Assembly (NCBI GenBank): GCA_045128835.1 | Contig: JBGVRX010000029.1 | Location: 51,583 to 115,582 of the forward strand | Reading direction: 5' to 3' | Length of the DNA: 64,000 nucleotides | Source of the DNA: Bacilli bacterium | Lineage (GTDB): Bacteria > Bacillota_I > Bacilli_A > RFN20 > DUOF01 | Shown: in pieces, positions 6,801 through 60,104 of the stretch | How positions within the stretch are numbered: position 1 is the stretch's first letter | How the letters are laid out: each line of letters begins with the position of its first letter | Translations under genes and position numbers: made by a program | The notes under the pieces: model-generated | Told to the model about the DNA's origin: nothing | What the model saw: the letters and a program-made list of their open reading frames with translations, nothing else | Databases searched by the model: none

Positions 6801-7352
6801 TGCCTTAAATTCTAAAGTCTTATAGAATCCTAGTTTCTTTAAAAAATGTCTTTTTTCAAACTCTAAATAACTTTCAAAATCTCTAACAAAATCTAAACAA
6901 TGATAATCATAAACATTTGGAGTCTCATTAATAATATATCTAACAGTTTTAAGATCGCTCAACGCTTTCTTATAATCATTTTTTATTTTTACATCAAAAG
7001 AAAATTCTTTTTCATATTTTCGCATTTTCTTACTATCGTTTATGTAAATATCTTTAACCTTATAATAACTTTCTCCATCCTTAGTTATTATAAAGTCTCC
7101 AACAAATTGATATAGTTGTCCTTTTGGTCTAATAAAAAAATTTTTGTAAAAATCAAAGTTTATATCTTTTAAAAGTCTTCTTTCAAGACTTGAACATGCT
7201 ACAAAAAAAGTATTTTCTAGCACAACTACTTCTTTAACAAAATTATTCAAATCAACATTAATTTCATCTAAGTATTTATAAAATGATGCTCCTGCTAGTC
7301 TCTTCTTATATTCATCTTTATAAACTTCACTAAAATCAAAGAAAATACCCAT
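3873..7352 (-). CDS. Superfamily 1B helicase of the Upf1/DNA2/NAM7-like family (AAA_11/AAA_12 type). It carries an N-terminal domain of about 400 aa of unknown function and a coiled-coil insertion of about 390 aa.
   Basis: Walker A LLQGPPGTGKTQ (nt ~6085-6115). Walker B VVIIDEVSKA. Motif III VGDHRQLPP. Motif IV QYRSHEQI. Motif V TVDEFQGKEEDIIIVNFVRNN. Motif VI INVALSRARKMLIIVGS. A long heptad-like Lys/Glu/Asn-rich insertion lies between Walker A and B. RBS GGAGGTG precedes the ATG. Confidence 0.75.
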   Translation of the reverse strand: MGIFFDFSEVYKDEYKKRLAGASFYKYLDEINVDLNNFVKEVVVLENTFFVACSSLERRLLKDINFDFYKNFFIRPKGQLYQFVGDFIITKDGESYYKVKDIYINDSKKMRKYEKEFSFDVKIKNDYKKALSDLKTVRYIINETPNVYDYHCLDFVRDFESYLEFEKRHFLKKLGFYKTLEFKAIELKEVKRNLNICKKYEDVTYFDDGNNYLYVDGNEMVDESYNSVIAVEFLVRIKKNENSFNNLQFFVSQEIELANEVDCLEKGELKVGNNELEFSFKTRRLGSLLKPLELVSESETEATYSFSKFWSDEDLDLYFSFARVNEYVTREFGEKPVLVNILSGDVALYKRGKQALRDLREGNVKSPGIASYLFNISEFETSEDVLKREDIVWSNNSLDKYQKEAVYRAINSNSIFLLQGPPGTGKTQTITEMVYQYNKMGKKVLLSSQTHVAIDNVIERLPDELDVLPIRLVNSERKIKSNKSYLPDKLVDNFYEKMKNKYLNKEKNFVLYGKTVEQSFVRYEEIKDKVIKHLNLRKEVRSLINNRNIVKSKANELDNKISVSLSKIRDFKNNLLFINEFRRSNYDINEYKGYLSSSVFRGLEFVKEYEINEEYENFNDYLKYFKIYFSNNEKFASDYKKFINKNISTLDNFYNEAKNSLDVYSSKVNEYKESRSSLSKEINELNNQIANKTKGREKDFREIDEYFDEYFNNILSFNKRPLDDEGCLNVIHSYINQEKNKFEKEESKYKEYEFLYKDVIKYIEDNKEDLLEKDKVKYTKYLLNNNANVYSITCNANSKYLEEKNEYLKKLGLGDIELKNIDFDVVIIDEVSKANGVELLIPILYGKSIILVGDHRQLPPLFKYKEKMFKDDSDKELLSKYESLVENSMFKELFKKSRNNKYMLVNQYRSHEQIMDVVNIFYDDKLKLGNLKEQNEAKRHYLNVSSNSYSLFEENIHTYWFNSHYDVNRNVSYERKKKKGSIVSTSFYNEEEIYLTKEILKTLDRGYKALIDEGSMKEACSVGVISLYGDQVSELKKEVSKMKFEALNFNKSKVSTVDEFQGKEEDIIIVNFVRNNPLFEAGDFVKKFERINVALSRARKMLIIVGSKPFFSSLKIKMEALDDSSDVSVRKIYREIYDRVVGKIDEPNNYFGEVINYED

Positions 7353-7364
7353 CTATAACACCTC

Positions 7365-8714
7365 CTATCTTATAACTTTAACTATAACTTTATTTCCATC
7401 TTCATCTACTACAACGATTTCCTTCTTTTTGTTTAAAGTGACTTTTAAACCACTCTCAAACAAGTTAACTTCTTCAAAAAAGAACTTTTTATAATCTTGC
7501 AAATAAATAACTTTATCTTTTTTACTAACACGAACAGTAACCTTATATACATCATAGTTAAAAGGATTTAATTTAAAAACTGCGCTCTCACATTCATTTT
7601 TATCAAGCATGAATCCTTGTTCTTTAACTTCTACTTCTTTTTCTTCTTCTATATTTTTGGGAAATGACAATGTCAATTTACTCTTATTAAACTCAATTGT
7701 CTTCTTACCATCACTAACTTCATATTTAGTTAATTTAATAGGCATTGAATATAAAACATCATCAATACATTTAAAATCTTCTTCAAAGTAAATTTTTAAG
7801 TATAAGTCTCCTTGCTCTCCACCAAACTTACCATCTAACCCTTTTCCTTTTAGTTTAACAATTTTAAAATTGTTCGCTTCTTCTATTTCTATATACTGAT
7901 AATCTTTATTATTTATTTGTTTATAATAAGAAATGTTTAAACATTTTAAATTACTAGATAACTCTTTTTTATTAATATAAAATCCTGGCATATCTTTCTT
8001 TATAACGACATTTTTATAAACGTCTTTACCCTTTAAAGGAACTAGTTCACTCTCTATACAAATATAAAATGAGCCTTCGTTAATCCCTTGATTTTCAAGC
8101 TTAATTACTTCTCTAGTTTCTTCTCCGCTCGATTTTATTTTTTCAAAACCTTTTATAGTCTCTACATTTTTACTTATTCCTTTTATAATTTCTTCTTTAG
8201 AAAACTTTATTATTCTTTTGTCATAAACATCATTACCAACTACTTCAAAACATTCATAATCATTTATTTGAACTTTGATAAACAAATCACCTTTAATATC
8301 ATTACTTTCTCTTCCTTTTCCTTTTACAGTAATAATATCTCCTTCTTTTAAAGTTGGAGTTAATTGAACTTTAACTTTACCTTTTTTTACTAATTTACCT
8401 TTTCCTTCACATAAAGGACAAATGTTTTTAATAATTCTTTTATTCCCCTTACAGTGATTGCAAATCACTTTATTACCATTAATATTAATAAAACCTAACC
8501 CATTACATTTATCACACTTTTCGTAATATGTATTAAAATTAACACTCTCTACACATTTACAATCTTTTTCTACTTTACTTATAACTTCAACTTCTTTTCC
8601 TTTTAAAATATCCAAATATGAAAAAGAACCTTCATCATAAATATCTAGATTCTCTTTAACATTTAAATTATTCTCATAATTATAATTATCTACAAAAATA
8701 TTATTCTTTTTCAT
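7365..8714 (-). CDS. DnaJ-like substrate-binding module protein with a CR-type zinc finger and two DnaJ CTD-like repeats. It lacks a J domain.
   Basis: Zinc finger CKCVESV...CDKCNGLG...CNHCKGNK...CPLCEGKG. CTD-like motifs KGKGRESNDIKGDLFIKVQIND and GKGLDGKFGGEQGDLYLKIYFEED. No J-domain at the N-terminus. The start overlaps the coaE stop (ATGA). Confidence 0.55.
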   Translation of the reverse strand: MKKNNIFVDNYNYENNLNVKENLDIYDEGSFSYLDILKGKEVEVISKVEKDCKCVESVNFNTYYEKCDKCNGLGFININGNKVICNHCKGNKRIIKNICPLCEGKGKLVKKGKVKVQLTPTLKEGDIITVKGKGRESNDIKGDLFIKVQINDYECFEVVGNDVYDKRIIKFSKEEIIKGISKNVETIKGFEKIKSSGEETREVIKLENQGINEGSFYICIESELVPLKGKDVYKNVVIKKDMPGFYINKKELSSNLKCLNISYYKQINNKDYQYIEIEEANNFKIVKLKGKGLDGKFGGEQGDLYLKIYFEEDFKCIDDVLYSMPIKLTKYEVSDGKKTIEFNKSKLTLSFPKNIEEEKEVEVKEQGFMLDKNECESAVFKLNPFNYDVYKVTVRVSKKDKVIYLQDYKKFFFEEVNLFESGLKVTLNKKKEIVVVDEDGNKVIVKVIR

Positions 8715-12666: not shown

Positions 12667-13032
12667 TTACTCCTCTATAGTTCTTGTAGCAACAATATCA
12701 ACACCTAAGTCCATTACATTACTTACAATAACATCTTTCACTTTGATTGGTGCACTAACTTCAATATTATCTAAGTAACGCACAATTTCTTGAACTTTAT
12801 CTTTTGGTACATCTCCACTTGTAATAACAGGTAATCTTCTAACAAGTTTAGAATTAATTTTAACTGTTGATGTTAAAGTTCTTTTAGGATCGACAGCTTC
12901 TTGTTTTCCATACTTTTCTCCTCTTATACAAGTATGTCCAGTAACATTACCATTGTCATCAACTTTCAAATGACATCCTTTAGGACAAACAATACAAATA
13001 AATTCTTTCATTTTATCTATCCTCCACTTCAA
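12667..13032 (-). CDS. DUF1667 domain protein, a Cys-rich partner of glycerol-3-phosphate dehydrogenase operons.
   Basis: CIVCPKGCHLKV...GHTCIRGEKYG metal-binding motifs. Position downstream of the two FAD oxidoreductases matches the conserved Firmicutes cluster. Confidence 0.55.
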   Translation of the reverse strand: MKWRIDKMKEFICIVCPKGCHLKVDDNGNVTGHTCIRGEKYGKQEAVDPKRTLTSTVKINSKLVRRLPVITSGDVPKDKVQEIVRYLDNIEVSAPIKVKDVIVSNVMDLGVDIVATRTIEE

Positions 13033-14266
13033 TTACTAGTTTACCTTCATTAGTAGTAAATTCTTCTTTCTTTACTACAATTGTTTCCATTTCTGCTGGA
13101 AGCAAATGAAGTTTAACTACACTTTTTATAACTTGATCATTAAGTTTAATAACAACTTTTTTGTTTTCCATAGGGCCTCTAACTCTAAATTTAAATTCTA
13201 CATTTTCATCAATGTTTTCTTTGTTTATAATTTGAGGAATAATATAGCTAATGCCTGTGCCTGGTACACAATCTATTTTTTTATCACTTCTTGTTACTAA
13301 TCCTTTTAAGTATTTACTAGCACCTTTACCAGCTGCTCTACCTTCTTTAGTAACAAAATCAACTAAGTCATGAACATGCAAACTATTACCACAAGCAAAA
13401 ATTCCTTCTTTAGTAGTCTCCATCATTTCATTAACAATAGGTCCTCTTGTTGAGCTCATTGCCATACCCATATCTTCTAATAAAACATTTGATGGAAGTA
13501 ATCCTACAGATAAAAGCAATGTATCAACATCAAACTCTATTTCAGTACCTGGAATGAAATTAAACTTTTCATCAACCTTACTTATAACAACCTTTTCAAT
13601 TCTATCTTTACCAATAATATTACTTACTGAATGAGATAAATATAAAGGAATATCAAAATCATTTAAACATTGTACAATGTTACGGTTCAATCCATTAGAA
13701 TACGGCATTAATTCTGCTACTCCTAATACTTTAGCACCTTCCAAAGTCATTCTTCTTGCCATAATAAGTCCAATATCTCCACTACCTAATATGAACACTC
13801 TTTTACCAACTAAATAACCATCAATATTTAAATATCTTTGAGCAAGACCAGCACTCATAATTCCACTAGGTCTCTCTCCAGGAATTGCAATAGCACCTCT
13901 TGTTCTTTCACTACATCCAGTAGACATAACTATCGCTTTTGCTTTAATAACACAATATCCATCTTTATCATTTGAATAAATAATTGTTTTGTCTTCATTA
14001 ATACCTAAAACCATTGTATCTACTTTATATTCAATACCACACTCTTTAAATTTATCAACAAATCTTTGAGCATATTCAGGACCTGCTAACTGTTCTTTAA
14101 ACTCATGCAAACCAAATCCATTGTGAATACATTGAAGTAAAATACCACCTAAATATTTTTCTTTTTCTAAAAGAAGAATACTTTTAATTCCTTCTTCATA
14201 AGCAGTTAAGGCTGCAGCTAAACCAGCACTTCCTCCACCAACTACAACTAAATCATATTCTCTCAT
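13013..14266 (-). CDS. NAD(P)/FAD-dependent oxidoreductase of the pyridine nucleotide-disulfide family. Partner of the anaerobic glycerol-3-phosphate dehydrogenase.
   Basis: Rossmann motif YDLVVVGGGSAGLAAA. A second dinucleotide motif VFILGSGDIGL. The start is trimmed to the internal MREYDLVVVGGG, which abuts the stop of the upstream gene. Confidence 0.7.
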   Translation of the reverse strand: MREYDLVVVGGGSAGLAAALTAYEEGIKSILLLEKEKYLGGILLQCIHNGFGLHEFKEQLAGPEYAQRFVDKFKECGIEYKVDTMVLGINEDKTIIYSNDKDGYCVIKAKAIVMSTGCSERTRGAIAIPGERPSGIMSAGLAQRYLNIDGYLVGKRVFILGSGDIGLIMARRMTLEGAKVLGVAELMPYSNGLNRNIVQCLNDFDIPLYLSHSVSNIIGKDRIEKVVISKVDEKFNFIPGTEIEFDVDTLLLSVGLLPSNVLLEDMGMAMSSTRGPIVNEMMETTKEGIFACGNSLHVHDLVDFVTKEGRAAGKGASKYLKGLVTRSDKKIDCVPGTGISYIIPQIINKENIDENVEFKFRVRGPMENKKVVIKLNDQVIKSVVKLHLLPAEMETIVVKKEEFTTNEGKLVIEVEDR

Positions 14267-14267
14267 G

Positions 14268-15692
14268 TTATTTTCCCTCCTTTGTTTCGCTTTGCAAGAT
14301 GTATGAATCTTTTGAATCATAGCGGACATTTAAAGGATTTAAATTTAACTCTCTAGCAAGAATTTCTACTACTAATGGTTCACAGAAACCACCTTGACAT
14401 TTTCCAAAACCTGGACGACATCTTTTCTTAACCCCTTTAATTGTTCTAGCTCCAGCATTTCTTCTAATGCAATCTACAACTTCACCTTCACTAATACCTT
14501 CACATCTACAAATAATATGACCATAGGCAGGGTTATTTCTAATAAGTTCATTTCTTTCTTCAATACTCATTTTATTAAGTCTAATAACTTTTCTTCTAAA
14601 TGGATTGAAGTTGTTATTTTTCTCTAAATCCAATACACCATTAACTAATTTAACAGCTTCCTTAGCAATTGCAGGAGCACTTGCAAGTCCTGGAGATTCA
14701 ATACCACCTAGATTTACAAAACCATCTACTTCTTCAATAACAAAATCATGAGTAGAACCAGTTGCTCTTAAACCACTGAATTGTCTTATAATATAACCGA
14801 AAGGAATATCTCTAACTAATTTTGTTGAACTACTTCTAACGTTATCTAAAGTTAACTTATCTGTAGATAAGTCTTCTTTATCATCAACAAACTCACTACT
14901 TGGCCCAACCAAATAATTTCCGTGAGTTGTAGGAGTAACCAAAATTCCTTTTCCTTTTTCTGTAGGAACAGGGAAAATAACATGGCTTACAAAAGGTTTC
15001 TCAAAGTGATCCAAAACAAAATATTCACCTTTTCTAGGAGTTATTTCGAAATGATTAATTCCTGCCATTTTAGAAATCTTATCACTATATAACCCTGCAG
15101 CATTTACAACAACCTTAGCTTCATATTCAGTTTTATTTGTCTTAACAATATATTTATCAGATAATTTTCCTATTTCTACAACTTCTTCATTTAATAAAAT
15201 ATCTACACCATTATCCATTGCATTTTCACATAAAGCTACACATAACTCAAATGGATTAATAATTCCTGCAGTAGGAGCATATAAAGATCCAATTACCGCA
15301 TCACTAACATATGGTTCTATTTTCTTTGTTTCTTCTTTATTTAATATTTTAACTTCAACATTATTTTCCTTTGCTCTAGGAAGATAACTTTCAATAATTT
15401 TCATTTCTTCTTCATCAGTAGCGCAAGTTAAAGAACCAATTCTTTTAAATTCAACATCCAACTCTTTAGTTAATAAGTCGTACATTGCATTTCCTTCAAC
15501 ATTATATTTAGCTTTATTTGTTCCTGGTTTTGGATCATATCCTGAGTGAACAATTGCACTGTTTGCCATTGAGGTAACGTTACCAACATCACTTTCTTTA
15601 TCTAAAACCAAAACTTTTGCTTTATATTTTGATAACTCTCTAGCTACACTGGCACCTATTACTCCAGCACCAATAATAATTACATCATACAT
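14268..15692 (-). CDS. FAD-dependent glycerol-3-phosphate dehydrogenase/oxidase (GlpA/GlpD family) with a C-terminal BFD-like [2Fe-2S] domain.
   Basis: N-terminal MYDVIIIGAGVIGASVAREL. C-terminal Cys motifs CRCEGISEGEV...CRPGFGKCQGGFC. Sits next to glpK. Confidence 0.7.
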   Translation of the reverse strand: MYDVIIIGAGVIGASVARELSKYKAKVLVLDKESDVGNVTSMANSAIVHSGYDPKPGTNKAKYNVEGNAMYDLLTKELDVEFKRIGSLTCATDEEEMKIIESYLPRAKENNVEVKILNKEETKKIEPYVSDAVIGSLYAPTAGIINPFELCVALCENAMDNGVDILLNEEVVEIGKLSDKYIVKTNKTEYEAKVVVNAAGLYSDKISKMAGINHFEITPRKGEYFVLDHFEKPFVSHVIFPVPTEKGKGILVTPTTHGNYLVGPSSEFVDDKEDLSTDKLTLDNVRSSSTKLVRDIPFGYIIRQFSGLRATGSTHDFVIEEVDGFVNLGGIESPGLASAPAIAKEAVKLVNGVLDLEKNNNFNPFRRKVIRLNKMSIEERNELIRNNPAYGHIICRCEGISEGEVVDCIRRNAGARTIKGVKKRCRPGFGKCQGGFCEPLVVEILARELNLNPLNVRYDSKDSYILQSETKEGK

Positions 15693-15709
15693 AAGTTATA
15701 TCTCCTTCC

Positions 15710-18048
<2,339 letters not shown>

Positions 18049-23439: not shown

Positions 23440-23934
23440 TTATTTTTGTCCTTCTATCATTCTTTTTGGTAACTTTTGCAATGTAACACTAGCAATAAAA
23501 GCAGTTAACACACCACTAGCAACACTAGTTAACTCCAATATAACTAAATAGTTAATCATGTAAACACTATTATACAGTAACATAACCATTAAAACTTGTC
23601 CTAAAGCATGGAAAACCGCCCCAATAACAGACAATCCATAAATAGATGCCTTCTTAAACTTGTACACGATAAGAGTAAAAATAGTAGCTAATGCTGTACC
23701 ACTAAATCCAATAAAGAAAGCTGTGCCAAATCCCGTTCTTAGAAGTGCTACCATGAACACTTTTAAAATATTAAATAAAATATAATCTTTTTCATCATAT
23801 AAACACAAAACTACTAATCCAATACAATTCGCTAACCCAAGTTTTACTCCAGGTAAAGGCAATGGTAAAGGTACTAATGATTCTAAATAATTTATAATTA
23901 AAGCTACTGCTAAAAGAAGTGATATTTTTATCAT
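23440..23934 (-). CDS. Polytopic membrane protein, heptaprenyl-diphosphate-synthase-component-I-like (Gx transporter, EetB-like).
   Basis: Five or six TM helices. The N-terminus MIKISLLLAVALIINYLESLVPLPLP resembles PF07456-type proteins. The start is trimmed to the internal MIKIS. Confidence 0.4.
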   Translation of the reverse strand: MIKISLLLAVALIINYLESLVPLPLPLPGVKLGLANCIGLVVLCLYDEKDYILFNILKVFMVALLRTGFGTAFFIGFSGTALATIFTLIVYKFKKASIYGLSVIGAVFHALGQVLMVMLLYNSVYMINYLVILELTSVASGVLTAFIASVTLQKLPKRMIEGQK

Positions 23935-23959
23935 TTTATTTGTTCTACTATTCATAATA

Positions 23960-24358
23960 TCACATCTCCCAATCATTATCAGGAGTCGCTTGACCCATTA
24001 TCGTAATAATTACAGCATTTGGCAAACAAACTATTGGACGAGCAACACTATCTACCCAACCTTGCATAGAACAATAGTGAAGAGGAGATTCTTCTTTTTT
24101 AACTCTAACTTTTTTGTCTTTTATTTCTATTATCATCTCGCCTAATAAACTAGAATACTTATCAGGACTAAGGACAATCTCAGCATCTTCATTCATCTCC
24201 AATTTATATTTTTGTTTTCCTTCAATCGTTACAATAGCATATAAAACTTCACCTTTTGCCTTATTTGTAACGGCATTAGAAACAATGAATAAAACACAAA
24301 TAAGAATAAAGGAAATAATATAGACAATAATATCGTATTTATTATGCTTAAGCTCCAT
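23960..24358 (-). CDS. NusG domain II (DUF1312)-containing membrane protein, EetA-like.
   Basis: N-terminal TM helix followed by a beta-rich module ...AIVTIEGKQKYKLEMNEDAEIVLSP...EIKDKKVRV. Gene context is ApbE plus Rnf. Confidence 0.4.
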   Translation of the reverse strand: MELKHNKYDIIVYIISFILICVLFIVSNAVTNKAKGEVLYAIVTIEGKQKYKLEMNEDAEIVLSPDKYSSLLGEMIIEIKDKKVRVKKEESPLHYCSMQGWVDSVARPIVCLPNAVIITIMGQATPDNDWEM

Positions 24359-25574
24359 AATTAAATACCTCTAATTCAATATCATTAAATACTTGTAATA
24401 CTTGATCTTGCATAGTATCATTCACTAATAACTTAATACCATCATCTACCTTAACTTGTAACAATACATCTAAAGAAACATTGTTATTTTCCAACAATGT
24501 AAGATAAGTTTTAATCTCTTCAATGCTATTCATTGTCATAAGTGTTGTAGTTACAACATCCACCATCATAGCACTTTCTCCTATTACAGTAGCACCAACT
24601 AAATAAGTATTAGGATATCCACTAGTCGCATTAATAATGTGATGTCTTATAATACCATCACTATTTATATACCCTCTATGTTGAATACCTGAAGTAGATA
24701 TTGCATTATCACCTTCTAATTGAAGTTGTGCAGCTTGAGTAGATACAAAAGTATTACTATTCATACTATCATTAACTGCAATATTCCATACTCCACCATC
24801 TCTAGTAGGGTTATTTCCTCTAATTATAATACTAGATTGCCCAGCATCATAAATTGATGCACCTATATCTATAAATTCATCAATTTGTGACATTTTATCT
24901 AAGAAATAACTTTTAGCCATAGCACCTAATGTAATTGACGCTTGGCCAATACAACTGTTGAACGAATTAAAAGTAATTTTATTATTAACATCATCAATTA
25001 CAAGAATATTATCAATATCATTAACAGGAGCAACACACTTCATTGCTTCCTCTATTTCTTCACTTGTAGGATCAACATTTCTAATAGAAGTATCATAAGA
25101 AGTAAATCTTTCATCCCATACATCTACAATTGAACCAGATATAATATTAAATCTACCATTAGATAATTTAGTGTACTTTACGCCTTCTTTTAAAGCATCA
25201 ATAATTATCTCATCTACCTCAATAGAAGCACCACTACCATAACTATCATTAATAATTTTAATATTATTTATTAAATTACCCTTACTATCTTTGTAATAAT
25301 AGTTTCTATCCAATAAACTATGATACTTAAAAACTTCCTCATTTAATAAATCTTGTAATTCATTAACTTTTTGTTCGTTATATCCAACAAAACCAATATA
25401 AGTACCAAAAGGCTCAACTAATGTATAAGATGTGCCTTCTTTATTTAAATAGCCAATTATGTATGAAGAAAAAATAGATGTCTTAACTGGTTCTTCTTTT
25501 TTACACGAGCATCCACTAACTATACAAATTAATATAACTATTAAACTAAATATCTTCTTCATACATATCCTCAC
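24348..25574 (-). CDS. ApbE-family FAD:protein FMN transferase lipoprotein (FmnB-like).
   Basis: Lipoprotein signal MKKIFSLIVILICIVSGCSC. C-terminal GATVIGESAMMVDVVTTTLM resembles the ApbE ATViG..a..ADalsTal motif. Adjacent to the rnf operon. Confidence 0.5.
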   Translation of the reverse strand: MRICMKKIFSLIVILICIVSGCSCKKEEPVKTSIFSSYIIGYLNKEGTSYTLVEPFGTYIGFVGYNEQKVNELQDLLNEEVFKYHSLLDRNYYYKDSKGNLINNIKIINDSYGSGASIEVDEIIIDALKEGVKYTKLSNGRFNIISGSIVDVWDERFTSYDTSIRNVDPTSEEIEEAMKCVAPVNDIDNILVIDDVNNKITFNSFNSCIGQASITLGAMAKSYFLDKMSQIDEFIDIGASIYDAGQSSIIIRGNNPTRDGGVWNIAVNDSMNSNTFVSTQAAQLQLEGDNAISTSGIQHRGYINSDGIIRHHIINATSGYPNTYLVGATVIGESAMMVDVVTTTLMTMNSIEEIKTYLTLLENNNVSLDVLLQVKVDDGIKLLVNDTMQDQVLQVFNDIELEVFNYGA

Positions 25575-25577
25575 TAA

Positions 25578-25913
25578 CTACTTTAAATTTATTTCTTCAC
25601 CTTTATTATTTTTTATTGTTTTACAATATTCTTTTAAAACATCTGCATTAGCATCTGTAATAACTTTACATGCCTTTGCTTCATTAACTTCACCATCTAA
25701 AATTGCTTTTGCTAATGCTTCACAACCAACATATCCACACGCTCCACAATTATAACTAGGCAAAATAAACTCTATTTTACTAACTCTATCATCATCTTCA
25801 ACATGAAAGTATTTATTTGCAAGGGCTAATCCTACTCCTAAAACTACAGCAATAACAAGAATAACTCCTCCTGCAATTAATACATTAACAAAATCCATAT
25901 TATTCCTCCTCAC
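25578..25913 (-). CDS. rnfB: RnfB-like protein. Short form with an N-terminal TM helix and an Fe-S cluster domain only.
   Basis: MDFVNVLIAGGVILVIAVVLG...NCGACGYVGCEALAKAI matches the RnfB N-terminal Fe-S domain. No 4Fe-4S ferredoxin domains follow. Confidence 0.55.
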   Translation of the reverse strand: MRRNNMDFVNVLIAGGVILVIAVVLGVGLALANKYFHVEDDDRVSKIEFILPSYNCGACGYVGCEALAKAILDGEVNEAKACKVITDANADVLKEYCKTIKNNKGEEINLK

Positions 25914-26055
25914 TTCTATGAATGCACCCTAAAAAGTTACATCCATGACAAGTTTTTTTATCACATTTAACTTCAAATTTCTTATTTAATTTAAACATAG
26001 CTAAATATATTAAACTAAAAATCAAAACAACTACGACCGGTAACAAATATTTCAT
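25900..26055 (-). CDS. Small membrane protein (about 51 aa) with a CxxxxCxxCxxxxC motif, between rnfA and rnfB.
   Basis: MKYLLPVVVVLIFSLIYLAMFKL (TM) followed by CDKKTCHGCNFLGC. The start abuts the rnfA stop and the end overlaps the rnfB start. Confidence 0.3.
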   Translation of the reverse strand: MKYLLPVVVVLIFSLIYLAMFKLNKKFEVKCDKKTCHGCNFLGCIHRSEEE

Positions 26056-26057
26056 TA

Positions 26058-26633
26058 TTATACAATTCCTGCAAAACCAGTAAAGGCCAAAGCCATAAAT
26101 GCCGCACAAATTAAAGCAATTGGAACACCTTTAAATGCCTTAGGAACTGGTGCTTTGTCTAATTGCTCTCTTATCGCAGAGAAAATGAAGATAACCATTA
26201 AATAACCAATTGATATTGAAAGTGAATAAACACACATTTCTAAGAAATTATAACCAAATGATATGTTATTTAAAGTAACCCCTAAAACAATACAGTTTGT
26301 TGTTATTAATGGTAAATAAACTCCAAATTCTTCATATAAATGAGGGAAATACTTCTTTATCAATAATTCTGCAAATTGAACTAATGAAGCAATAACTAAA
26401 ATAAATACAACATTATTCATATAAGCTATTTCTAATGGTTCTAACACTAAATGATATAACCCATATGTCATAATAGATGACAAGAATACTACACAAATAA
26501 CAGCAATTCCCATTCCAAAAGCTTGAGATCTTTTTTTACTTACTCCAAGAAAAGGACAGATACCTAAGAATTGTCCTAAAACAACATTACTAACTAAAAT
26601 AGCACCTATCGCCAAACTAATATAACTAAGCAT
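26058..26633 (-). CDS. rnfA: Rnf electron transport complex subunit A.
   Basis: 191-aa polytopic membrane protein at the RnfA position in a C-D-G-E-A-B operon. Confidence 0.85.
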   Translation of the reverse strand: MLSYISLAIGAILVSNVVLGQFLGICPFLGVSKKRSQAFGMGIAVICVVFLSSIMTYGLYHLVLEPLEIAYMNNVVFILVIASLVQFAELLIKKYFPHLYEEFGVYLPLITTNCIVLGVTLNNISFGYNFLEMCVYSLSISIGYLMVIFIFSAIREQLDKAPVPKAFKGVPIALICAAFMALAFTGFAGIV

Positions 26634-27327
26634 TTTCCTTTTCCTCCTTTACAGTTTCTACAATTTGTTTTTCTTCTTTTTTCTTATTTGCAATTTTATC
26701 AGAAACAAAATTATATAATGCCATCAATAATCCTAAAACAAGAAATGCTCCCATTCCAGTAGAGAATAAAGAAATTTGAATTGTTGAGCTATATTCCTCT
26801 AATCCAATTAAATTCATTAAATTAAAGATTTCGTTATTGTTAAACAGATTGTGTAAAACAATGTTTCCTGTTCCTAAAAATTCTCTAATAAACGCTATAG
26901 AAATTAATGCAACAGCAAATCCTAATCCTGTAGCTATTGCATCTAGAAAACTCTTTAGAGGATCATTTTTACTAGCAAAAGCTTCTGCTCTACCAAGAAC
27001 AATACAGTTAACTGTAATAAGAGGTAAAAAGACACCTAAACCCTTATATAATTCATAAGTAAATGCTTCAGCTAACATTGTTACACAAGTAACAAATGTT
27101 GCAATAATTATTATGAAAATTGGAAGTCTTATTTCAGATGGTATTATTTTTCTTAGCAAAGAAACAACAACATTTGAAAAAATTAAAACGATTGTTACTG
27201 CAATTGACATACCTATAGCATTATCTATAGAAGTTGTAATTGCAAGAGCTGAACATAAACCCAGCATCAAAACTAGAACAGGATTTTTTGTAAGGATTCC
27301 TTCCTTAAAAATTGTACTATTTTTCAT
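26626..27327 (-). CDS. rnfE: Rnf electron transport complex subunit E.
   Basis: 233-aa polytopic membrane protein paralogous to RnfA, at the RnfE position. Confidence 0.85.
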   Translation of the reverse strand: MKNSTIFKEGILTKNPVLVLMLGLCSALAITTSIDNAIGMSIAVTIVLIFSNVVVSLLRKIIPSEIRLPIFIIIIATFVTCVTMLAEAFTYELYKGLGVFLPLITVNCIVLGRAEAFASKNDPLKSFLDAIATGLGFAVALISIAFIREFLGTGNIVLHNLFNNNEIFNLMNLIGLEEYSSTIQISLFSTGMGAFLVLGLLMALYNFVSDKIANKKKEEKQIVETVKEEKENA

Positions 27328-27854
27328 TATTTAACCCTCCCATAATGTGCAATTGCTGCATTTATTGCTGCAACAACATTATCTCCAGTATCAGATGCTC
27401 CAGTAACTACATCACTATCTGCTAAACTTGTCTTACCTTTTATTTTATTTAAATAACTGTTTGATGCATATAAGTTTGCATAACTATCACCTGCACTAGT
27501 AATTTTAAGAGTATATATCTTTCCATTTTGAAGAGCTACAATTGCAGCGCTATCATCACTACCAACACCATCTTTAATAGTTAATTTATAAACGTAATAT
27601 GTTTTACCTTCACTTTTAACCTCATAGGCATTGTTAACACCACTATCTAATTCAGCAGCATTTAAACTTGTGCTAATATTTTCTATTTTAGCATCTTCAC
27701 CAAACACTTCTAAAATAACAGCATTTTCTCTTTTGTTGGCATTTTTTTCAATAATTGGAGAAGTTACATTGTAAACAACTGCTAAAAGAAGACCTGCAAT
27801 AACAGCGATAATCCCTAAAATAAGAGGATATCTAATTAGCTTATTCTCTTTCAT
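27327..27854 (-). CDS. rnfG: Rnf electron transport complex subunit G (FMN-binding).
   Basis: N-terminal TM helix plus an FMN_bind-like domain with a VTGASDTG motif. 175 aa at the RnfG position. Confidence 0.7.
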   Translation of the reverse strand: MKENKLIRYPLILGIIAVIAGLLLAVVYNVTSPIIEKNANKRENAVILEVFGEDAKIENISTSLNAAELDSGVNNAYEVKSEGKTYYVYKLTIKDGVGSDDSAAIVALQNGKIYTLKITSAGDSYANLYASNSYLNKIKGKTSLADSDVVTGASDTGDNVVAAINAAIAHYGRVK

Positions 27855-29341
27855 TATTTAGCACCTCCTCTTACTGTTTCAACAACAGCTTTTAAGTTAC
27901 CTATAAATGCACTTGTAGTATATGTAGCGCTTGTTTCTACATCAATTCCTACATTAGCATCTGTTGTATTTTCACAAACTTTATTTTCACATTTGAAGTT
28001 ATCTAAATCACTAAATTTAATTTGTTTATTGTCTCCAATAACAGCACCATAAATTGAACTACTTTCTAAACTTGAATAATACTCTCCTGGATTTTTCTCT
28101 AATAGTTCTACTGCAACAATTGTTTCAGTTGATGCATTTACTGTAACTTTAAACTTTAATGTCCCTTTAAATCCATCACTACTAACTGTGTACTCACTAT
28201 CACTTAATTTTTCAACAGTATAATCTTTTAACCAAGGATTTTTTTCTTCTTTTTCTAATGGATATAAAGCACTATATCCAATATTCATACCTATTGCTCC
28301 AACAAAGAATGCTGCTACAACAGCCCATTTAGAAGCGACTTTATTAACAGTTGTTCCTTTTATACAACTATCAATTAAAGGATTTAACATATTCATTAAA
28401 GCAACTGAGAACATAACTCCTTCTGGGTAATCAGAGTTTATTCTAATAAACATTGTTAAAGCAGCTGCACCTATACCAAAAATTATTTTACCATTCATTG
28501 ATTTTGGACTAGTCACAGGATCTGTAATCATGAATACTGAAGCAAACATGATTCCTCCTGTTGCTAGTTGAAGTAATGTATAAGATAATACGTTATCTAC
28601 TCCATAGAACAATCCTAAAGCAAAGCTAATACCTGTAATTGTTAATAAATAACTTAACATTAATCTATAACTAATAATTCCTCTGATAATTAAATAAATT
28701 GCTGCAACAACTAATAGAATTGTAAATGTTTCTCCCATTGCTCCATTATAATTACCAAATAAAATTGTTTTAAAATCATAACCTTCTGGAATAGCCCCTT
28801 CCGCCCAGTTAATGCTACTAGTAACTGTTGAACTAGTAACAAAATCATAAGTAGCAGAATTAGTTTCATTTGCTACAATTCCATAATTTAAACTTGATCC
28901 AAATGCTAATCCAACAAAAATTCTACCGATTATTGCTGGGTTAAATATATTATAACCAAATCCACCAAATAAATATTTTCCTAATAATGTTGCTACTATT
29001 GAACCAATAATAACAGCATAATAACTAACACCTACTGGTAAACATAAAGCAAATATAATCGCCGTAACATAACTATAACTAGTTGAAACGGCATTACCTA
29101 TCTCTTTTATTTTTCTTTTTCCTTTAAGCAAGGCTATAATAACATCAACTGCTAATGTTGTACCTAAAGATATTAAAACAACAAGTATTGCTCTTAATCC
29201 AACTAAAAAGTTAAATCTAATCGAATAAGAAACAACTGAAACCAACCACACAACAGCAAGTACCGCAAACAATTCTAACATTATCCCTGTTGTGCTTCTT
29301 TTACTCCTTAAAAAAGGTCCTTTTGCTAACGAAAATTTCAT
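27854..29341 (-). CDS. rnfD: Rnf electron transport complex subunit D, with a fused C-terminal FMN-binding-like extension.
   Basis: N-terminus MKFSLAKGPFLRSKRSTTGIMLEL typical of the RnfD/NqrB family. About 150 extra C-terminal residues contain the flavinylation-like motif ETSATYTTS. Confidence 0.8.
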   Translation of the reverse strand: MKFSLAKGPFLRSKRSTTGIMLELFAVLAVVWLVSVVSYSIRFNFLVGLRAILVVLISLGTTLAVDVIIALLKGKRKIKEIGNAVSTSYSYVTAIIFALCLPVGVSYYAVIIGSIVATLLGKYLFGGFGYNIFNPAIIGRIFVGLAFGSSLNYGIVANETNSATYDFVTSSTVTSSINWAEGAIPEGYDFKTILFGNYNGAMGETFTILLVVAAIYLIIRGIISYRLMLSYLLTITGISFALGLFYGVDNVLSYTLLQLATGGIMFASVFMITDPVTSPKSMNGKIIFGIGAAALTMFIRINSDYPEGVMFSVALMNMLNPLIDSCIKGTTVNKVASKWAVVAAFFVGAIGMNIGYSALYPLEKEEKNPWLKDYTVEKLSDSEYTVSSDGFKGTLKFKVTVNASTETIVAVELLEKNPGEYYSSLESSSIYGAVIGDNKQIKFSDLDNFKCENKVCENTTDANVGIDVETSATYTTSAFIGNLKAVVETVRGGAK

Positions 29342-29344
29342 TTA

Positions 29345-30649
29345 CTACTTCCCTCCTTTATTAGCACTTACTCTTAAATATAGTTTTGCTTTTTTTATCG
29401 CATCCGTTAATTCAATATGTGATGGACAAACAAATGAACACATACCACATTCTACACATTTACTACAATCAAACGCTTGAAGTTCTTTTGCATCTTTATC
29501 ATCAAAAGCATTCTTAATTTGAATTGGTTGTAACCCTGCTGGACAATTTTCAATACATTTGCCACATTTTAAGCAAGGCAATGTTTGATAAACTTTTTTC
29601 TTCATTATAGTTAAACCACCATTGTTTGTTTGAATTGCAAATTCATCTGTTATATTAGCTTTTGAAGTCATTGGTCCTCCTGCTAAAACACAAACTTCTT
29701 CAGCCAAGTATCCGCACTTTTCTAAAATATTTTTAGCTAAAGTTCCAACTGGAACAACCACATTTGTAGGATTAACAGCATCACCACTAATAGTTAACAA
29801 TCTTTCGCTAATTACATCACCATCTATTAGTGCTTTAGCAACACTTATAACAGTTTGAGCATTATTTACAACAACGCCAATTTCACTAGGAAGTTTATCA
29901 TAAGTCTTTTTGTATACAGTTTTAACTAATAGTTTTTCCCATCCCATTGGGTATCTATCTTTAACTTCTACAATTCTAACTCCTTGATAGTTTGATAACT
30001 CCTTTTCAATAATTTCCTTTAAATCCTTCTTATTGTTTTTAAAAGCAATAATAGCTTCACTTGCTCCACTAAGTTTCATTAAAATAGAAATTCCTTCTAA
30101 TAAATAGTTAACATTACTTTTCATTGTAATATAGTCAGTAGTTAAATAAGGTTCACATTCTACTCCATTTACTAACAAACTGTTAATTTGCGCATCTGAA
30201 GAATACTTAACATATGTTGGGAACCCAGCACCACCTAAGCCTACGATTCCGGCTTCTTTAATAGCATTTAAAATTGTTTCTCTATCACAGTTTTTATAAT
30301 CAATTGTTTTTAATAGTTCTTTAGTGTATTTAAAGTCATTCTCAATTACTAAGTGATCACAACTTTTTCCTAATGCACTATTGTACATGCTTTTAATACC
30401 TTTCACTTTCCCACTCACACTTGAATAAAGAGGAACATAGAAATCATTTCTTTTACAAAGCACAGTTCCTACCTTAACTGTATCTTTTTCTTTTACTAAA
30501 ATTTCCATTTCCTTTCCGTTAGGTGCTAATACAGGAAAATAAACTTCACCACAAATTTCTTTTTCTTGTTTGAAGTCTACAACTTCCTTATGAGCGGTTA
30601 ATTCTTTGTGTCCATTAATGTGTCTTTTACCAATTGAACTAATAATCAT
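29345..30649 (-). CDS. rnfC: Rnf electron transport complex subunit C.
   Basis: GGAGFPTYVK NADH-binding motif. Two 4Fe-4S motifs, CLKCGKCIENCP and CSKCVECGMCSFVCP. Confidence 0.85.
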   Translation of the reverse strand: MIISSIGKRHINGHKELTAHKEVVDFKQEKEICGEVYFPVLAPNGKEMEILVKEKDTVKVGTVLCKRNDFYVPLYSSVSGKVKGIKSMYNSALGKSCDHLVIENDFKYTKELLKTIDYKNCDRETILNAIKEAGIVGLGGAGFPTYVKYSSDAQINSLLVNGVECEPYLTTDYITMKSNVNYLLEGISILMKLSGASEAIIAFKNNKKDLKEIIEKELSNYQGVRIVEVKDRYPMGWEKLLVKTVYKKTYDKLPSEIGVVVNNAQTVISVAKALIDGDVISERLLTISGDAVNPTNVVVPVGTLAKNILEKCGYLAEEVCVLAGGPMTSKANITDEFAIQTNNGGLTIMKKKVYQTLPCLKCGKCIENCPAGLQPIQIKNAFDDKDAKELQAFDCSKCVECGMCSFVCPSHIELTDAIKKAKLYLRVSANKGGK

Positions 30650-37149: not shown

Positions 37150-39189
37150 TTAACGACGTCCGCCGCCAAATGAGCCGCCTCCGCCACCGAATGAGCTTCC
37201 TCCACTGAAGCCACCTCCGCCACCACGGAAGCCTCCGAATCCTCCTCCTGATCTTGAACTTATTCTTTGAGCAGTCATATGTCTTGATATAGTTCCTGAA
37301 GAAGCTGTTCTAATAGTTCTTATAGACCTATTAAGAACACCAATTCTATGTCTATAACCAAAATAAACGAAATAAGTACAATCCGCAGAAGTCAATTCTT
37401 CATATTTAAATTTAAGTTTTAATTGAGCAGTTACTTTATCTGCAATTCCAAAACTAGTTGCATAAACTAAGTAATGTTCCCAAACTACTATTGAAGGCAC
37501 TGGATAATCTTCAAATGAAGAAAAATCTTCTAAGAATTTTTTAAATGCTTTCCATCTAACATAATCCTCGTTACCTTTTTTACTACGTTTATTAATTGTC
37601 TTTAAATAACAAACAAACGAAGTAATCATACATATGATACCAAACCACAAGCTAGTTCCAAATATATAACCACTATAATTAGTTATAAAAATCATTATAG
37701 CCATTAAAGCGAAAGCAATTAAAGACGCCATTATAATATATCCTGTTTTAGCACTTCCCGATGCATCTTCAAAGAATTTATATTTACTAGCCTCTGCTTT
37801 TACTAATTTATACCACTTGTTACTGCATTTTTGATAATTTGTTGCACCAGAATAAGAATCACAATATGATTTTAATTGCCCACTAGTAACTTGTTCATGA
37901 TCTCCCATCTCATCAATGAACCATTTAATCAAAAATCTTTCTGATTCAGTTAAATCACTAGTACTCTTTTCTTTGTTTTTCTTAATTATATATTCAAATT
38001 TTCTTTCATCATCGCCGCCAGAATTACCTTTAGTATCTAAAATTAAATACTTCCTTCTAATTAAATCTAGTAATGTCGCAGACAAGTCATCATCATTAAT
38101 ATCCCTAAATTTATATAAATACCCCATTACAGCTGGAGGATAATTCGCTGGCAATTCTCTATAATACTCATTATAGAATTCTGACACATATTCTTTATCA
38201 AGTTTCTTATAACAAATAAAGAACAACAAAGCAAACAAAGCAAATCCTACATAATATATAATTAATGCGCCTAAATTACCCCAGAAGTATTTAGAATCTG
38301 CTTCTTTTGTAGTATTTTCTTCAAAAGCCAAAATATCATTTTTTGCATTAATATTTACTTGGTTAATTAAATCAACACCAGTAAACAATTCATTATCTAA
38401 TAATAATCTAACTTCTATTTGCTCATCGCTAATCATATCATCTGCTGTAATAGTGATTTTATTGTTTTCAATAAATCTTCTTTCAGCCATATTTGTTCCA
38501 TGGAAGAATGTATCTTCTTCAGCAATATCATAATTACCTTCAGGTAATGTAATATTGATTTTGACATTATTAAACTTGAATGGTTGATAGCCTAACATTA
38601 CCCAGTTAAATTCAGAAATATCATTATATTGCGTGATTACACCTTCAATAGTATATTCATACTTAAAAGTCGTAATTCTTGCAAAACCAGGCTTGTTGTA
38701 ATAGAAAACAACATCACAATATTTAGTTGAAGCATTTTCACATTTAAGTTTATAACCACGTTCATCCACATCATTATTATAAGAATACCCTACAAAATGC
38801 TTAGGGTAATTCTCTTCACTAGTTTCTGAATCAAATACAACACCAGTAGAATCACTAACAGTAAATTTAACATCTTTCACTAATTTACTTCTATTAATTG
38901 AACTATTTCCAAAATCATTGTTTTTGTTATAGGCTATTTCTTTATAAAAGTAGTTATTGTAATAATTAACGTAATTATCTATAACAATGGTTTCTACTAC
39001 ATGCATATCCCCATTTTCATCGATAACCACGTCCATATTATAATTTTTGGCTTCCATATTTCCTTTTTTGTCACCACTACTATAATTAATGCAAGATCTA
39101 GACATTATTGGGAATAAAAGGCCCAAAATTAAAAAGATAACCATCAATACTTTAGAAAGTTTTTTTGATGCAACACTATTATTTTCCAC
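37150..39189 (-). CDS. DUF2207-family membrane protein with a C-terminal glycine-rich tail.
   Basis: N-terminal signal/TM, a large extracytoplasmic domain and central TM helices. Tail SRSGGGFGGFRGGGGGFSGGSSFGGGGGSFGGGRR. Confidence 0.6.
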   Translation of the reverse strand: MENNSVASKKLSKVLMVIFLILGLLFPIMSRSCINYSSGDKKGNMEAKNYNMDVVIDENGDMHVVETIVIDNYVNYYNNYFYKEIAYNKNNDFGNSSINRSKLVKDVKFTVSDSTGVVFDSETSEENYPKHFVGYSYNNDVDERGYKLKCENASTKYCDVVFYYNKPGFARITTFKYEYTIEGVITQYNDISEFNWVMLGYQPFKFNNVKINITLPEGNYDIAEEDTFFHGTNMAERRFIENNKITITADDMISDEQIEVRLLLDNELFTGVDLINQVNINAKNDILAFEENTTKEADSKYFWGNLGALIIYYVGFALFALLFFICYKKLDKEYVSEFYNEYYRELPANYPPAVMGYLYKFRDINDDDLSATLLDLIRRKYLILDTKGNSGGDDERKFEYIIKKNKEKSTSDLTESERFLIKWFIDEMGDHEQVTSGQLKSYCDSYSGATNYQKCSNKWYKLVKAEASKYKFFEDASGSAKTGYIIMASLIAFALMAIMIFITNYSGYIFGTSLWFGIICMITSFVCYLKTINKRSKKGNEDYVRWKAFKKFLEDFSSFEDYPVPSIVVWEHYLVYATSFGIADKVTAQLKLKFKYEELTSADCTYFVYFGYRHRIGVLNRSIRTIRTASSGTISRHMTAQRISSRSGGGFGGFRGGGGGFSGGSSFGGGGGSFGGGRR

Positions 39190-57727: not shown

Positions 57728-57752
57728 GAATTATTTTTGTGAGGTGAAGCAA

Positions 57753-58232
57753 ATGATTTGCGAGAAAAATATTAAAGAAATTAAACAAATTATTGAAAAC
57801 AGAAAAAACATAGAAACTCCCCTTATGATGATTCTAAGCGATATTCAAAACAAATATGGATATATAGATTTAGAAGTTCAACAAATAGTAGCAGACGAAT
57901 TAAATTTGCCTGTAAGTGAAGTTTATGGCGTTGTTACATTCTATTCATATTTTTCATTACAACCTAAAGGTAAATATGTAATAGGAATTTGTATGGGTAC
58001 TGCATGTTATGTGAAAGGAAGTCAATCTTTGTTAGATGCTTTCTGTAATAGACTAGGAATCAAGGAAGGACAAACAACAGAAGACGGCTTATTTACTATT
58101 GATGTATTAAGATGTATTGGAGCTTGTGGATTAGCCCCTGTAGTTAGCGTTAACGGTAAAATTTATCCGCATGTTGCTATAAAAGACGTAGACAAAATTA
58201 TTGCAGATTGTAAGAAAGGAGAAATCAACTAA
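57753..58232 (+). CDS. NuoE-like [2Fe-2S] thioredoxin-like ferredoxin subunit of a bifurcating [FeFe]-hydrogenase (HydC/HndA).
   Basis: Cys motifs ...GICMGTACYVKG...CIGACGLAPV. The start is trimmed to the ATG after the GAGGTG RBS. Confidence 0.8.
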   Translation: MICEKNIKEIKQIIENRKNIETPLMMILSDIQNKYGYIDLEVQQIVADELNLPVSEVYGVVTFYSYFSLQPKGKYVIGICMGTACYVKGSQSLLDAFCNRLGIKEGQTTEDGLFTIDVLRCIGACGLAPVVSVNGKIYPHVAIKDVDKIIADCKKGEIN

Positions 58233-60103: not shown

Positions 60104-60104
60104 G

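Follow-up and report, generated by a model that had tools for sequence, protein, structure and literature searches.

The stretch of DNA analysed here (hereafter the window) comprises 64,000 nucleotides of a Bacilli bacterium (assembly GCA_045128835.1, contig JBGVRX010000029.1, positions 51,583 to 115,582 of the forward strand) and carries an rnf operon, whose rnfD gene encodes an RnfD core followed, within a single open reading frame (ORF), by an eleventh transmembrane (TM) helix and a predicted extracytoplasmic FMN_bind domain. On the whole we favour the view that the last ~160 residues of this RnfD form an RnfG-like module with a third covalent flavin on the outer face of the membrane, which would serve as a side port of the Rnf complex. 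That the tail is an extracytoplasmic flavinylated FMN_bind domain is very probable in view of its sequence; its role as a side port, to which sequence comparison and analogy with related systems point, is a tentative assignment with somewhat less than an even chance of being right. Extra FMN_bind domains in RNF clusters are known (Meheust et al. 2021), and the new aspect is the use of RnfD as their carrier, of which we found no earlier description.

A first-pass annotation of the window had flagged the RnfD ORF, at 495 aa, as longer than typical RnfD, and this is borne out by the solved RnfD chains, which comprise 310–366 aa. The core aligns with the chains 9eri_D, 8ahx_D and 7zc6_D, and the alignment stops at about residue 328 of the query. 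A Foldseek search with the model of the whole protein returned only RnfD/NqrB (9eri_D: E 7e-14), with NqrC far down the list. In the predicted flavinylation site of the core, DFVTSST, the usual Gly and the usual Ala are both replaced by Ser, and T172 is invariant in an alignment of 68 homologues. The protein therefore has the core profile, the fold and the flavinylated-Thr position of RnfD. Since its NCBIfam score against TIGR01946 is 175, under the cut-off of 207, the window RnfD is, judged by its sequence, a divergent subfamily member.

The region pointed out earlier as an FMN_bind-like extension (27854–28306) corresponds to RnfD residues 346–495 plus the stop codon, and its assignment to FMN_bind has held up. 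PF04205 matches residues 390–487 of the isolated tail over profile positions 1–76 of 77 with 24.6 bits (E 4e-5), above the gathering score of 22. In an hhalign comparison the tail family pairs with the RnfG family (probability 90.8%, E 1.2e-6), with DVETSATYTTSAF aligned to DVVTGASDTGDNV and the flavinylation motifs in register. A search of the PDB sequences with the tail profile gave a single match, 8p2b (CbFMN4 domain 1; E 1e-5), with T473 in register with DVHSGAT; in the 8p2b crystal, Thr67 of this motif carries a covalent FMN. A model built from 19 homologous tails (pLDDT 89.2, pTM 0.86) has four strands that form a sheet, a beta-hairpin region as an insertion, and a last helix that begins at T473. 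This agrees with the FMN_bind fold, in which helices come after an antiparallel sheet and the last of them has the acceptor Thr at its N-terminus. By BLASTP, the tail and the RnfG of the same operon show no similarity (E 16), so that the relationship to RnfG is visible only through profile-profile and fold comparison. The extension is not classified as RnfG itself: it has no match in NCBIfam (TIGR01947), and the search with the tail profile found no RnfG chain in the PDB.

A word-indexed protein search with the tail alone was uninformative (12 candidates scored, 4 fragments returned), and an exhaustive profile search with the tail was used in its place. This identified 143 representatives (E up to 0.001), of which those close to the window are RnfD fusions. 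The more distant proteins mostly have several matched stretches each, and all four that were checked by Pfam are multi-FMN_bind proteins. A precomputed PF04205 match is recorded for about one third of the close homologues, and automated Pfam annotation already marks PF03116 together with PF04205 on some RnfD fusions. One of the proteins observed, P0129 (176 aa), combines an N-terminal HTH_3 DNA-binding domain with FMN_bind (Pfam E 3e-7), an odd pairing, since FMN_bind is normally extracytoplasmic.

The first-pass annotation had singled out ETSATYTTS (residues 469–477) for its resemblance to a flavinylation motif. The published consensus for ApbE substrates is D-x-x-[S/T]-G-A-[S/T], from which the tail motif deviates at one position. 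We compared 29 listed clusters of close homologues (P0001–P0029; 64–99% identity; from ENA, JGI, Logan and NCBI): D467 and T473 are invariant in all 29, so the motif Thr is conserved, and the Ala position is occupied by A or S. In total 18 positions of the tail are invariant; they include W, Y, A, G and K residues besides D467, T473 and the Cys pair C451 and C456. The tail is 41–88% identical among these homologues vs 74–94% for the core, and is thus evolving about twice as fast. Ser also stands for Gly in the core site DFVTSST and is therefore presumably tolerated by the cognate ApbE, and in a model substrate Gly-to-Ala and Ala-to-Val changes kept flavinylation at about 50%. All three predicted sites of the complex depart from the SGAT consensus, with TSST in the RnfD core, TSAT in the tail and TGAS, which has a serine acceptor, in RnfG. 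At the level of sequence this suggests a cognate ApbE with relaxed specificity; an apbE gene is present in the rnf operon.

Several lines of evidence suggest that the tail is on the outer side of the membrane. The extra part of RnfD had been called hydrophilic, which is correct for most of it but not for its first ~25 residues: residues 335–359 form a hydrophobic helix. This helix 11 is conserved among relatives, including those whose RnfD terminates right after it, and is preceded by KGTTVNKVASK, with three lysines, and followed by the acidic EKEEK. Rnf and NQR structures have the N-terminus of RnfD in the cytoplasm. RnfD/NqrB comprises 10 TM helices according to a review of RNF and NQR, and a ten-helix core with both ends cytoplasmic, extended by one more helix, would leave the tail outside. 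The two cysteines of the invariant pair, which are spaced by x3 in one relative, lie on two strands of one beta-hairpin in the tail model, where a disulphide between them is likely; such a hairpin Cys pair is typical for an extracytoplasmic disulphide. Finally, in relatives without a separate rnfG (L031, L032, L038, L041, L042, L044 and L047) the arrangement of core, helix and FMN_bind is the sole RnfG-like element and must therefore act on the outer face. From the count of ten plus one helices, the flanking charges, the Cys pair and the analogy with these RnfD-RnfG fusions we infer that the extension is extracytoplasmic, and nothing in its topology predicts a cytoplasmic location.

The tail does not stand in for a missing RnfG. 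As the earlier annotation had supposed, a separate, orthodox RnfG is present; its start codon overlaps the TAA stop of rnfD (TAATG), and the profile of its 175-aa family matches the solved RnfG 7zc6_G over the full length with E 1.6e-24. This match rules out the opposite assignment, in which the tail would be the true RnfG and the 175-aa protein something else. Since orthodox RnfG is encoded separately, the FMN_bind tail is supernumerary to it. The window RnfD polypeptide thus has two predicted covalent FMN sites, one in the core and one in the tail. Table 1 lists the features of the operon and its surroundings.

Table 1. Features of the rnf operon and adjoining genes (positions in the window)
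Feature	Position	Strand	Remarks
rnf operon, rnfC-D-G-E-A-(small ORF)-B	25578..30649	minus	contains the fused gene
rnfC	30649..29345	minus	
rnfD, core + eleventh TM helix + predicted extracytoplasmic FMN_bind domain	27854..29341	minus	single ORF, 495 aa
RnfD core, residues 6-329 (PF03116)	28355..29326	minus	Pfam E 1.2e-69
Predicted flavinylation site of RnfD core, D166-F-V-T-S-S-T172	28826..28846	minus	
Eleventh TM helix, residues 335-359, VASKWAVVAAFFVGAIGMNIGYSAL	28265..28339	minus	hydropathy; AF2 helix 335-359
Acidic linker, residues 360-373, YPLEKEEKNPWLKD	28223..28264	minus	
FMN_bind domain, residues 374-491	27869..28222	minus	
Invariant Cys pair C451-x4-C456	27974..27991	minus	tail alignment; model
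Predicted ApbE flavinylation motif of tail, D467-V-E-T-S-A-T473	27923..27943	minus	T473 codon 27923-27925
rnfG, orthodox, separate	27327..27854	minus	175 aa
Predicted flavinylation motif of separate RnfG, D148-V-V-T-G-A-S154	27393..27413	minus	serine acceptor
rnfE	27327..26626	minus	
rnfA	26633..26058	minus	
Small Cys-rich membrane ORF between rnfA and rnfB	25900..26055	minus	51 aa
rnfB	25578..25913	minus	111 aa
apbE, FAD:protein FMN transferase	24348..25574	minus	408 aa; lipoprotein signal (…IVSGC); immediately downstream of rnfB; PF02424 E 9.6e-33
NusG_II gene	24358..23960	minus	
Hpre_diP_synt_I / ECF-S-like membrane gene	23976..23440	minus	

The nearest genomes to the window are metagenome-assembled genomes (MAGs) of uncultured gut 'Bacilli bacterium', at up to 69% identity, followed by Erysipelotrichaceae, Allobaculum, Izemoplasmatales and Acholeplasmataceae. 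RnfD length in relatives, a comparison proposed with the first-pass annotation, agrees with a genuine fusion: the same uninterrupted ORF is found throughout P0001–P0029, with 494–506 aa, or 632–635 aa where the domain is duplicated. The Erysipelotrichaceae loci L016 and L022, with an RnfD of 499–500 aa, come from MAGs. Over the wider set, RnfD terminates right after helix 11 (348–357 aa), continues into a short tail (377–403 aa), or carries one FMN_bind domain (about 466–540 aa), two as resolved by Pfam (594–635 aa), or three flavinylation motifs (P0091 and P0092; about 827–829 aa), the last figure being a motif count, for Pfam resolved one FMN_bind stretch only. In P0006 (632 aa) and P0007 (635 aa) the window-type domain occurs twice in tandem, and the nearly identical sequences of the copies point to a recent internal duplication. 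The most extreme case is P0135, a match of the profile search and an RnfD of 1853 aa with 15 tandem FMN_bind domains from a metagenome contig of unplaced taxonomy (L068 5890–11451), which gives the impression of a flavin wire built onto RnfD itself. Its operon reads rnfC-rnfD-rnfE-rnfA, with no rnfG and no rnfB called, and is followed by exbB-exbD-tonB, which suggests a diderm host.

A sister lineage (P0030–P0037) has an RnfD core 69–79% identical to that of the window and the same helix 11, joined to a different outer domain: a paralogue of RnfG, 34–41% identical to RnfG (E 1e-21 to 2e-31), with the motifs SGAT, SGAS or AGAT. The architecture has thus outlasted an exchange or re-derivation of the outer domain. 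The locus L002 contains such an RnfD at 7001–8491, and its separate RnfG has the odd motif DVVSGNT. In relatives from Izemoplasmatales and Acholeplasmataceae, RnfD has helix 11 only and the following rnfG is enlarged, to 342–350 aa with two FMN_bind-like stretches (L037, L045) or to 251–387 aa (L050, L055, L058); in these five loci the extra flavin domains are on RnfG instead of RnfD.

The window module resembles several known systems and differs from each of them. Like RnfG/NqrC it belongs to the FMN_bind family and we infer that it works in the same way, although by the sequence comparisons above it is not RnfG. RnfG/NqrC is a separate membrane-anchored periplasmic FMN subunit, whereas the helix of the window module is fused to the C-terminus of RnfD; the module further differs by the inserted Cys-x4-Cys hairpin and by the orthodox RnfG encoded next to it. 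The RnfD-RnfG fusions of other uncultured Bacilli have the same core, helix and FMN_bind (the seven loci named above, and L025 and L026 with two domains). None of these operons has a separate rnfG, and the fused domain is the RnfG there, whereas it is supernumerary in the window.

The multi-flavinylated proteins (PMC8238504) and CbFMN4/SaFMN3 (PMC10339131) are likewise extra FMN_bind substrates of ApbE tied to RNF clusters. Such proteins, multi-flavinylated RnfG among them, have been proposed to open a second route by which electrons reach extracytosolic acceptors (Meheust et al. 2021, eLife, PMC8238504). At least two FMN_bind domains per protein define this class, and they are present in P0006, P0007 and P0039–P0042; the window RnfD differs in having a single one, carried by RnfD and not by RnfG or a secreted protein. 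The NQR/RNF-like systems also combine an RnfD-family membrane domain with a C-terminal redox fusion and are linked to extracytosolic flavinylation. There, the NqrB/RnfD domain is fused to the cytosolic NqrF-type NAD-binding domain PF00175 and accompanied by an RnfG-like partner, the flavinylation Thr of RnfD has been lost and the other parts of Rnf are missing. The window RnfD has no PF00175 match; its C-terminal domain is FMN_bind, probably on the outer side, it retains T172, and its operon includes rnfC, G, E, A and B. In the supplement of Meheust 2021, PF03116 appears solely in the definition of the NQR/RNF-like class, and neither that paper, its 2024 follow-up and reviews of ApbE and of RNF/NQR nor keyword searches of the literature yielded a reference to RnfD as an FMN_bind carrier by way of an added helix.

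In the mechanism that we propose, ApbE would attach FMN to Thr473, as well as to Thr172 of RnfD and Ser154 of RnfG, so that the Rnf complex would carry three covalent flavins outside the cytoplasm, vs two normally. The tethered flavin would sit beside the pair of RnfG-FMN and RnfD-FMN and could draw electrons from either, i.e. from NADH via RnfC and RnfD, or from ferredoxin via RnfB, RnfA/E and RnfG. As a side port it would hand electrons to extracytoplasmic acceptors, or accept them from donors there, and the window domain would be the minimal one-domain version of the chains of two, probably three, and fifteen flavin domains that other RnfD proteins have in the same place. We prefer the side port because of these multi-domain arrays, the affinity of the tail to secreted multi-flavin proteins, and the path already proposed for multi-flavinylated RnfG.

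A number of observations weigh against this interpretation. The tail motif has Ser for the consensus Gly, and the relatives vary at this position (G, S, D, N, T). Scored within the complete protein, PF04205 reaches 20.5 bits, under the gathering cut-off of 22, and an NCBIfam scan of the tail returned no family. Foldseek of the tail model against the PDB gave nothing at E <= 0.001, with NqrC chains recurring at E about 0.1. The FMN on T473 is a prediction from sequence and model. One extra flavin alone cannot span a cell wall, and the 64-kb window contains no candidate gene for an extracytoplasmic acceptor or reductase.

The last point fits an in-line relay, or a division of labour with RnfG, in which the fused flavin would stay within the normal path from ferredoxin to NAD+. 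A review of RNF and NQR describes a gap of ~35 Å between the RnfA/E cluster and RnfD-FMN, bridged by movement of RnfG. If RnfG-FMN remained close to the RnfA/E [2Fe-2S] cluster and the tethered FMN close to RnfD-FMN, this distance would be crossed by two serial flavins or by redundant shuttles. Such a relay would also agree with the extension being an RnfG-type module of helix and FMN_bind, placed where lineages without a separate rnfG have RnfG fused, and with the plain RnfG paralogue at the same position in P0030–P0037. Nevertheless, the orthodox RnfG of the window is intact and well conserved, so that no replacement is needed, the sequence of the window-type domain has more in common with the small domains found in secreted multi-flavin proteins than with RnfG, and tandem arrays of two to fifteen domains on other RnfD make little sense as a relay within the complex. 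We therefore regard the relay as unlikely, at about one chance in a handful or slightly better.

It is improbable that the domain is structural or vestigial, i.e. an outer-face cap or assembly element that is unflavinylated or whose flavin is not redox-relevant. The non-canonical motif with its variable Gly position, the borderline Pfam score and the rate of change of the tail relative to the core would all suit such a domain, and it is evidently dispensable for Rnf as such, many relatives having helix 11 only (348–403 aa). Yet Thr473, Asp467 and the T-x-S-A-x-I-G that follows the motif were kept while the tail diverged to about 41% identity, and the domain was duplicated in P0006 and P0007 and, in the sister lineage, swapped for an FMN_bind domain with canonical SGAT; duplication and replacement by another FMN_bind domain argue for selection on a flavin-carrying function. 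Merging of rnfD with a small FMN_bind gene by a sequencing or assembly error can be rejected with near certainty: the ORF recurs, at conserved length and in conserved synteny, in 29 clusters from independent sources and in six loci that represent about five independent assemblies (L001 and L004 are the same contig), and the segment between the core and helix 11 contains neither a Met nor a start signal.

The other components of the operon include an unusually short RnfB. It consists of a TM helix and a small single-cluster domain (PF04060), and the C-terminal polyferredoxin domain is missing; according to the RNF review this domain, with two to seven [4Fe-4S] clusters, is the acceptor site for ferredoxin. 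ORFs of 94–112 aa occupy the rnfB position in most of the related loci (Bacilli MAGs, Erysipelotrichaceae, Izemoplasmatales), and among them a PF04060 match is recorded for L001 and L002 only. A minimal RnfB without the polyferredoxin input domain, together with an added flavin on the outer face, leads to a more speculative reading, to which we give a rather low probability, lower than that of the in-line relay: this Rnf could be mainly an NADH-driven exporter of electrons (RnfC to RnfD) to extracellular acceptors, or else the extra flavin could take the place of the RnfG swing, as a two-flavin relay that alters the coupling of electron transfer to ion pumping.

The 51-aa ORF between rnfA and rnfB encodes a single hydrophobic helix with a Cys-rich tail (CDKKTCHGCNFLGC); a Pfam scan gave no match, and ORFs of 53–54 aa are called in the equivalent position in L001 and L002. 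It may be an additional small Rnf subunit or a metal-binding peptide. The ApbE-like lipoprotein noted earlier near the operon is indeed encoded there, but not upstream as had been stated: its coordinates are lower and the operon is on the minus strand, which puts it downstream of rnfB. With the NusG_II and Hpre_diP_synt_I genes it forms a trio (23440–25574, minus strand) that trails the rnf operon with conserved synteny; apbE keeps its place in L001–L006, and the gene order from rnfC through Hpre_diP_synt_I is conserved among relatives. The Hpre_diP_synt_I membrane protein has weak similarity to ECF S-components and, to speculate by analogy with the FmnA/ECF system of Listeria, could feed flavin (FAD) to the outer face for ApbE.

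Elsewhere in the window we observed a HydABC-type set (NuoE-like, NuoF-like and [FeFe] hydrogenase) and an ORF of the size of a glycerol kinase, assigned by that size, which adjoins genes for an FAD-dependent oxidoreductase and DUF1667 and is read as part of a glycerol cluster; the ranges 57744–61838 (plus strand) and 12667–17218 (minus strand) cover the HydABC and glycerol genes. The hydrogenase and the glycerol-oxidation genes indicate an anaerobe that lives by fermentation and draws on ferredoxin as well as NADH. The only other match to the flavinylation motif in the window, DSYSGAT in the ORF 37150–39189, belongs to a DUF2207 membrane protein and probably arose by chance. GC skew is strongly negative throughout the window and positive at 58–62 kb only, where the genes are on the plus strand.

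With a Pfam score close to the threshold and no NCBIfam match, the domain goes unnoticed in annotation pipelines, where such proteins appear as plain RnfD without the extra cofactor site. In many anaerobes Rnf has the central place in ferredoxin/NADH energy conversion, and the flavins on its outer face are usually regarded as one closed, U-shaped path. If our interpretation is true, the permanent attachment of a flavin domain to RnfD would create a built-in branch point there, in a fusion that is recurrent across gut Bacilli, Erysipelotrichaceae and their allies. It would offer a natural experiment on the debated role of RnfG movement in coupling, and would connect Rnf, in a concrete and testable way, with flavin-based extracellular electron transfer in gut bacteria that are poor in cytochromes.

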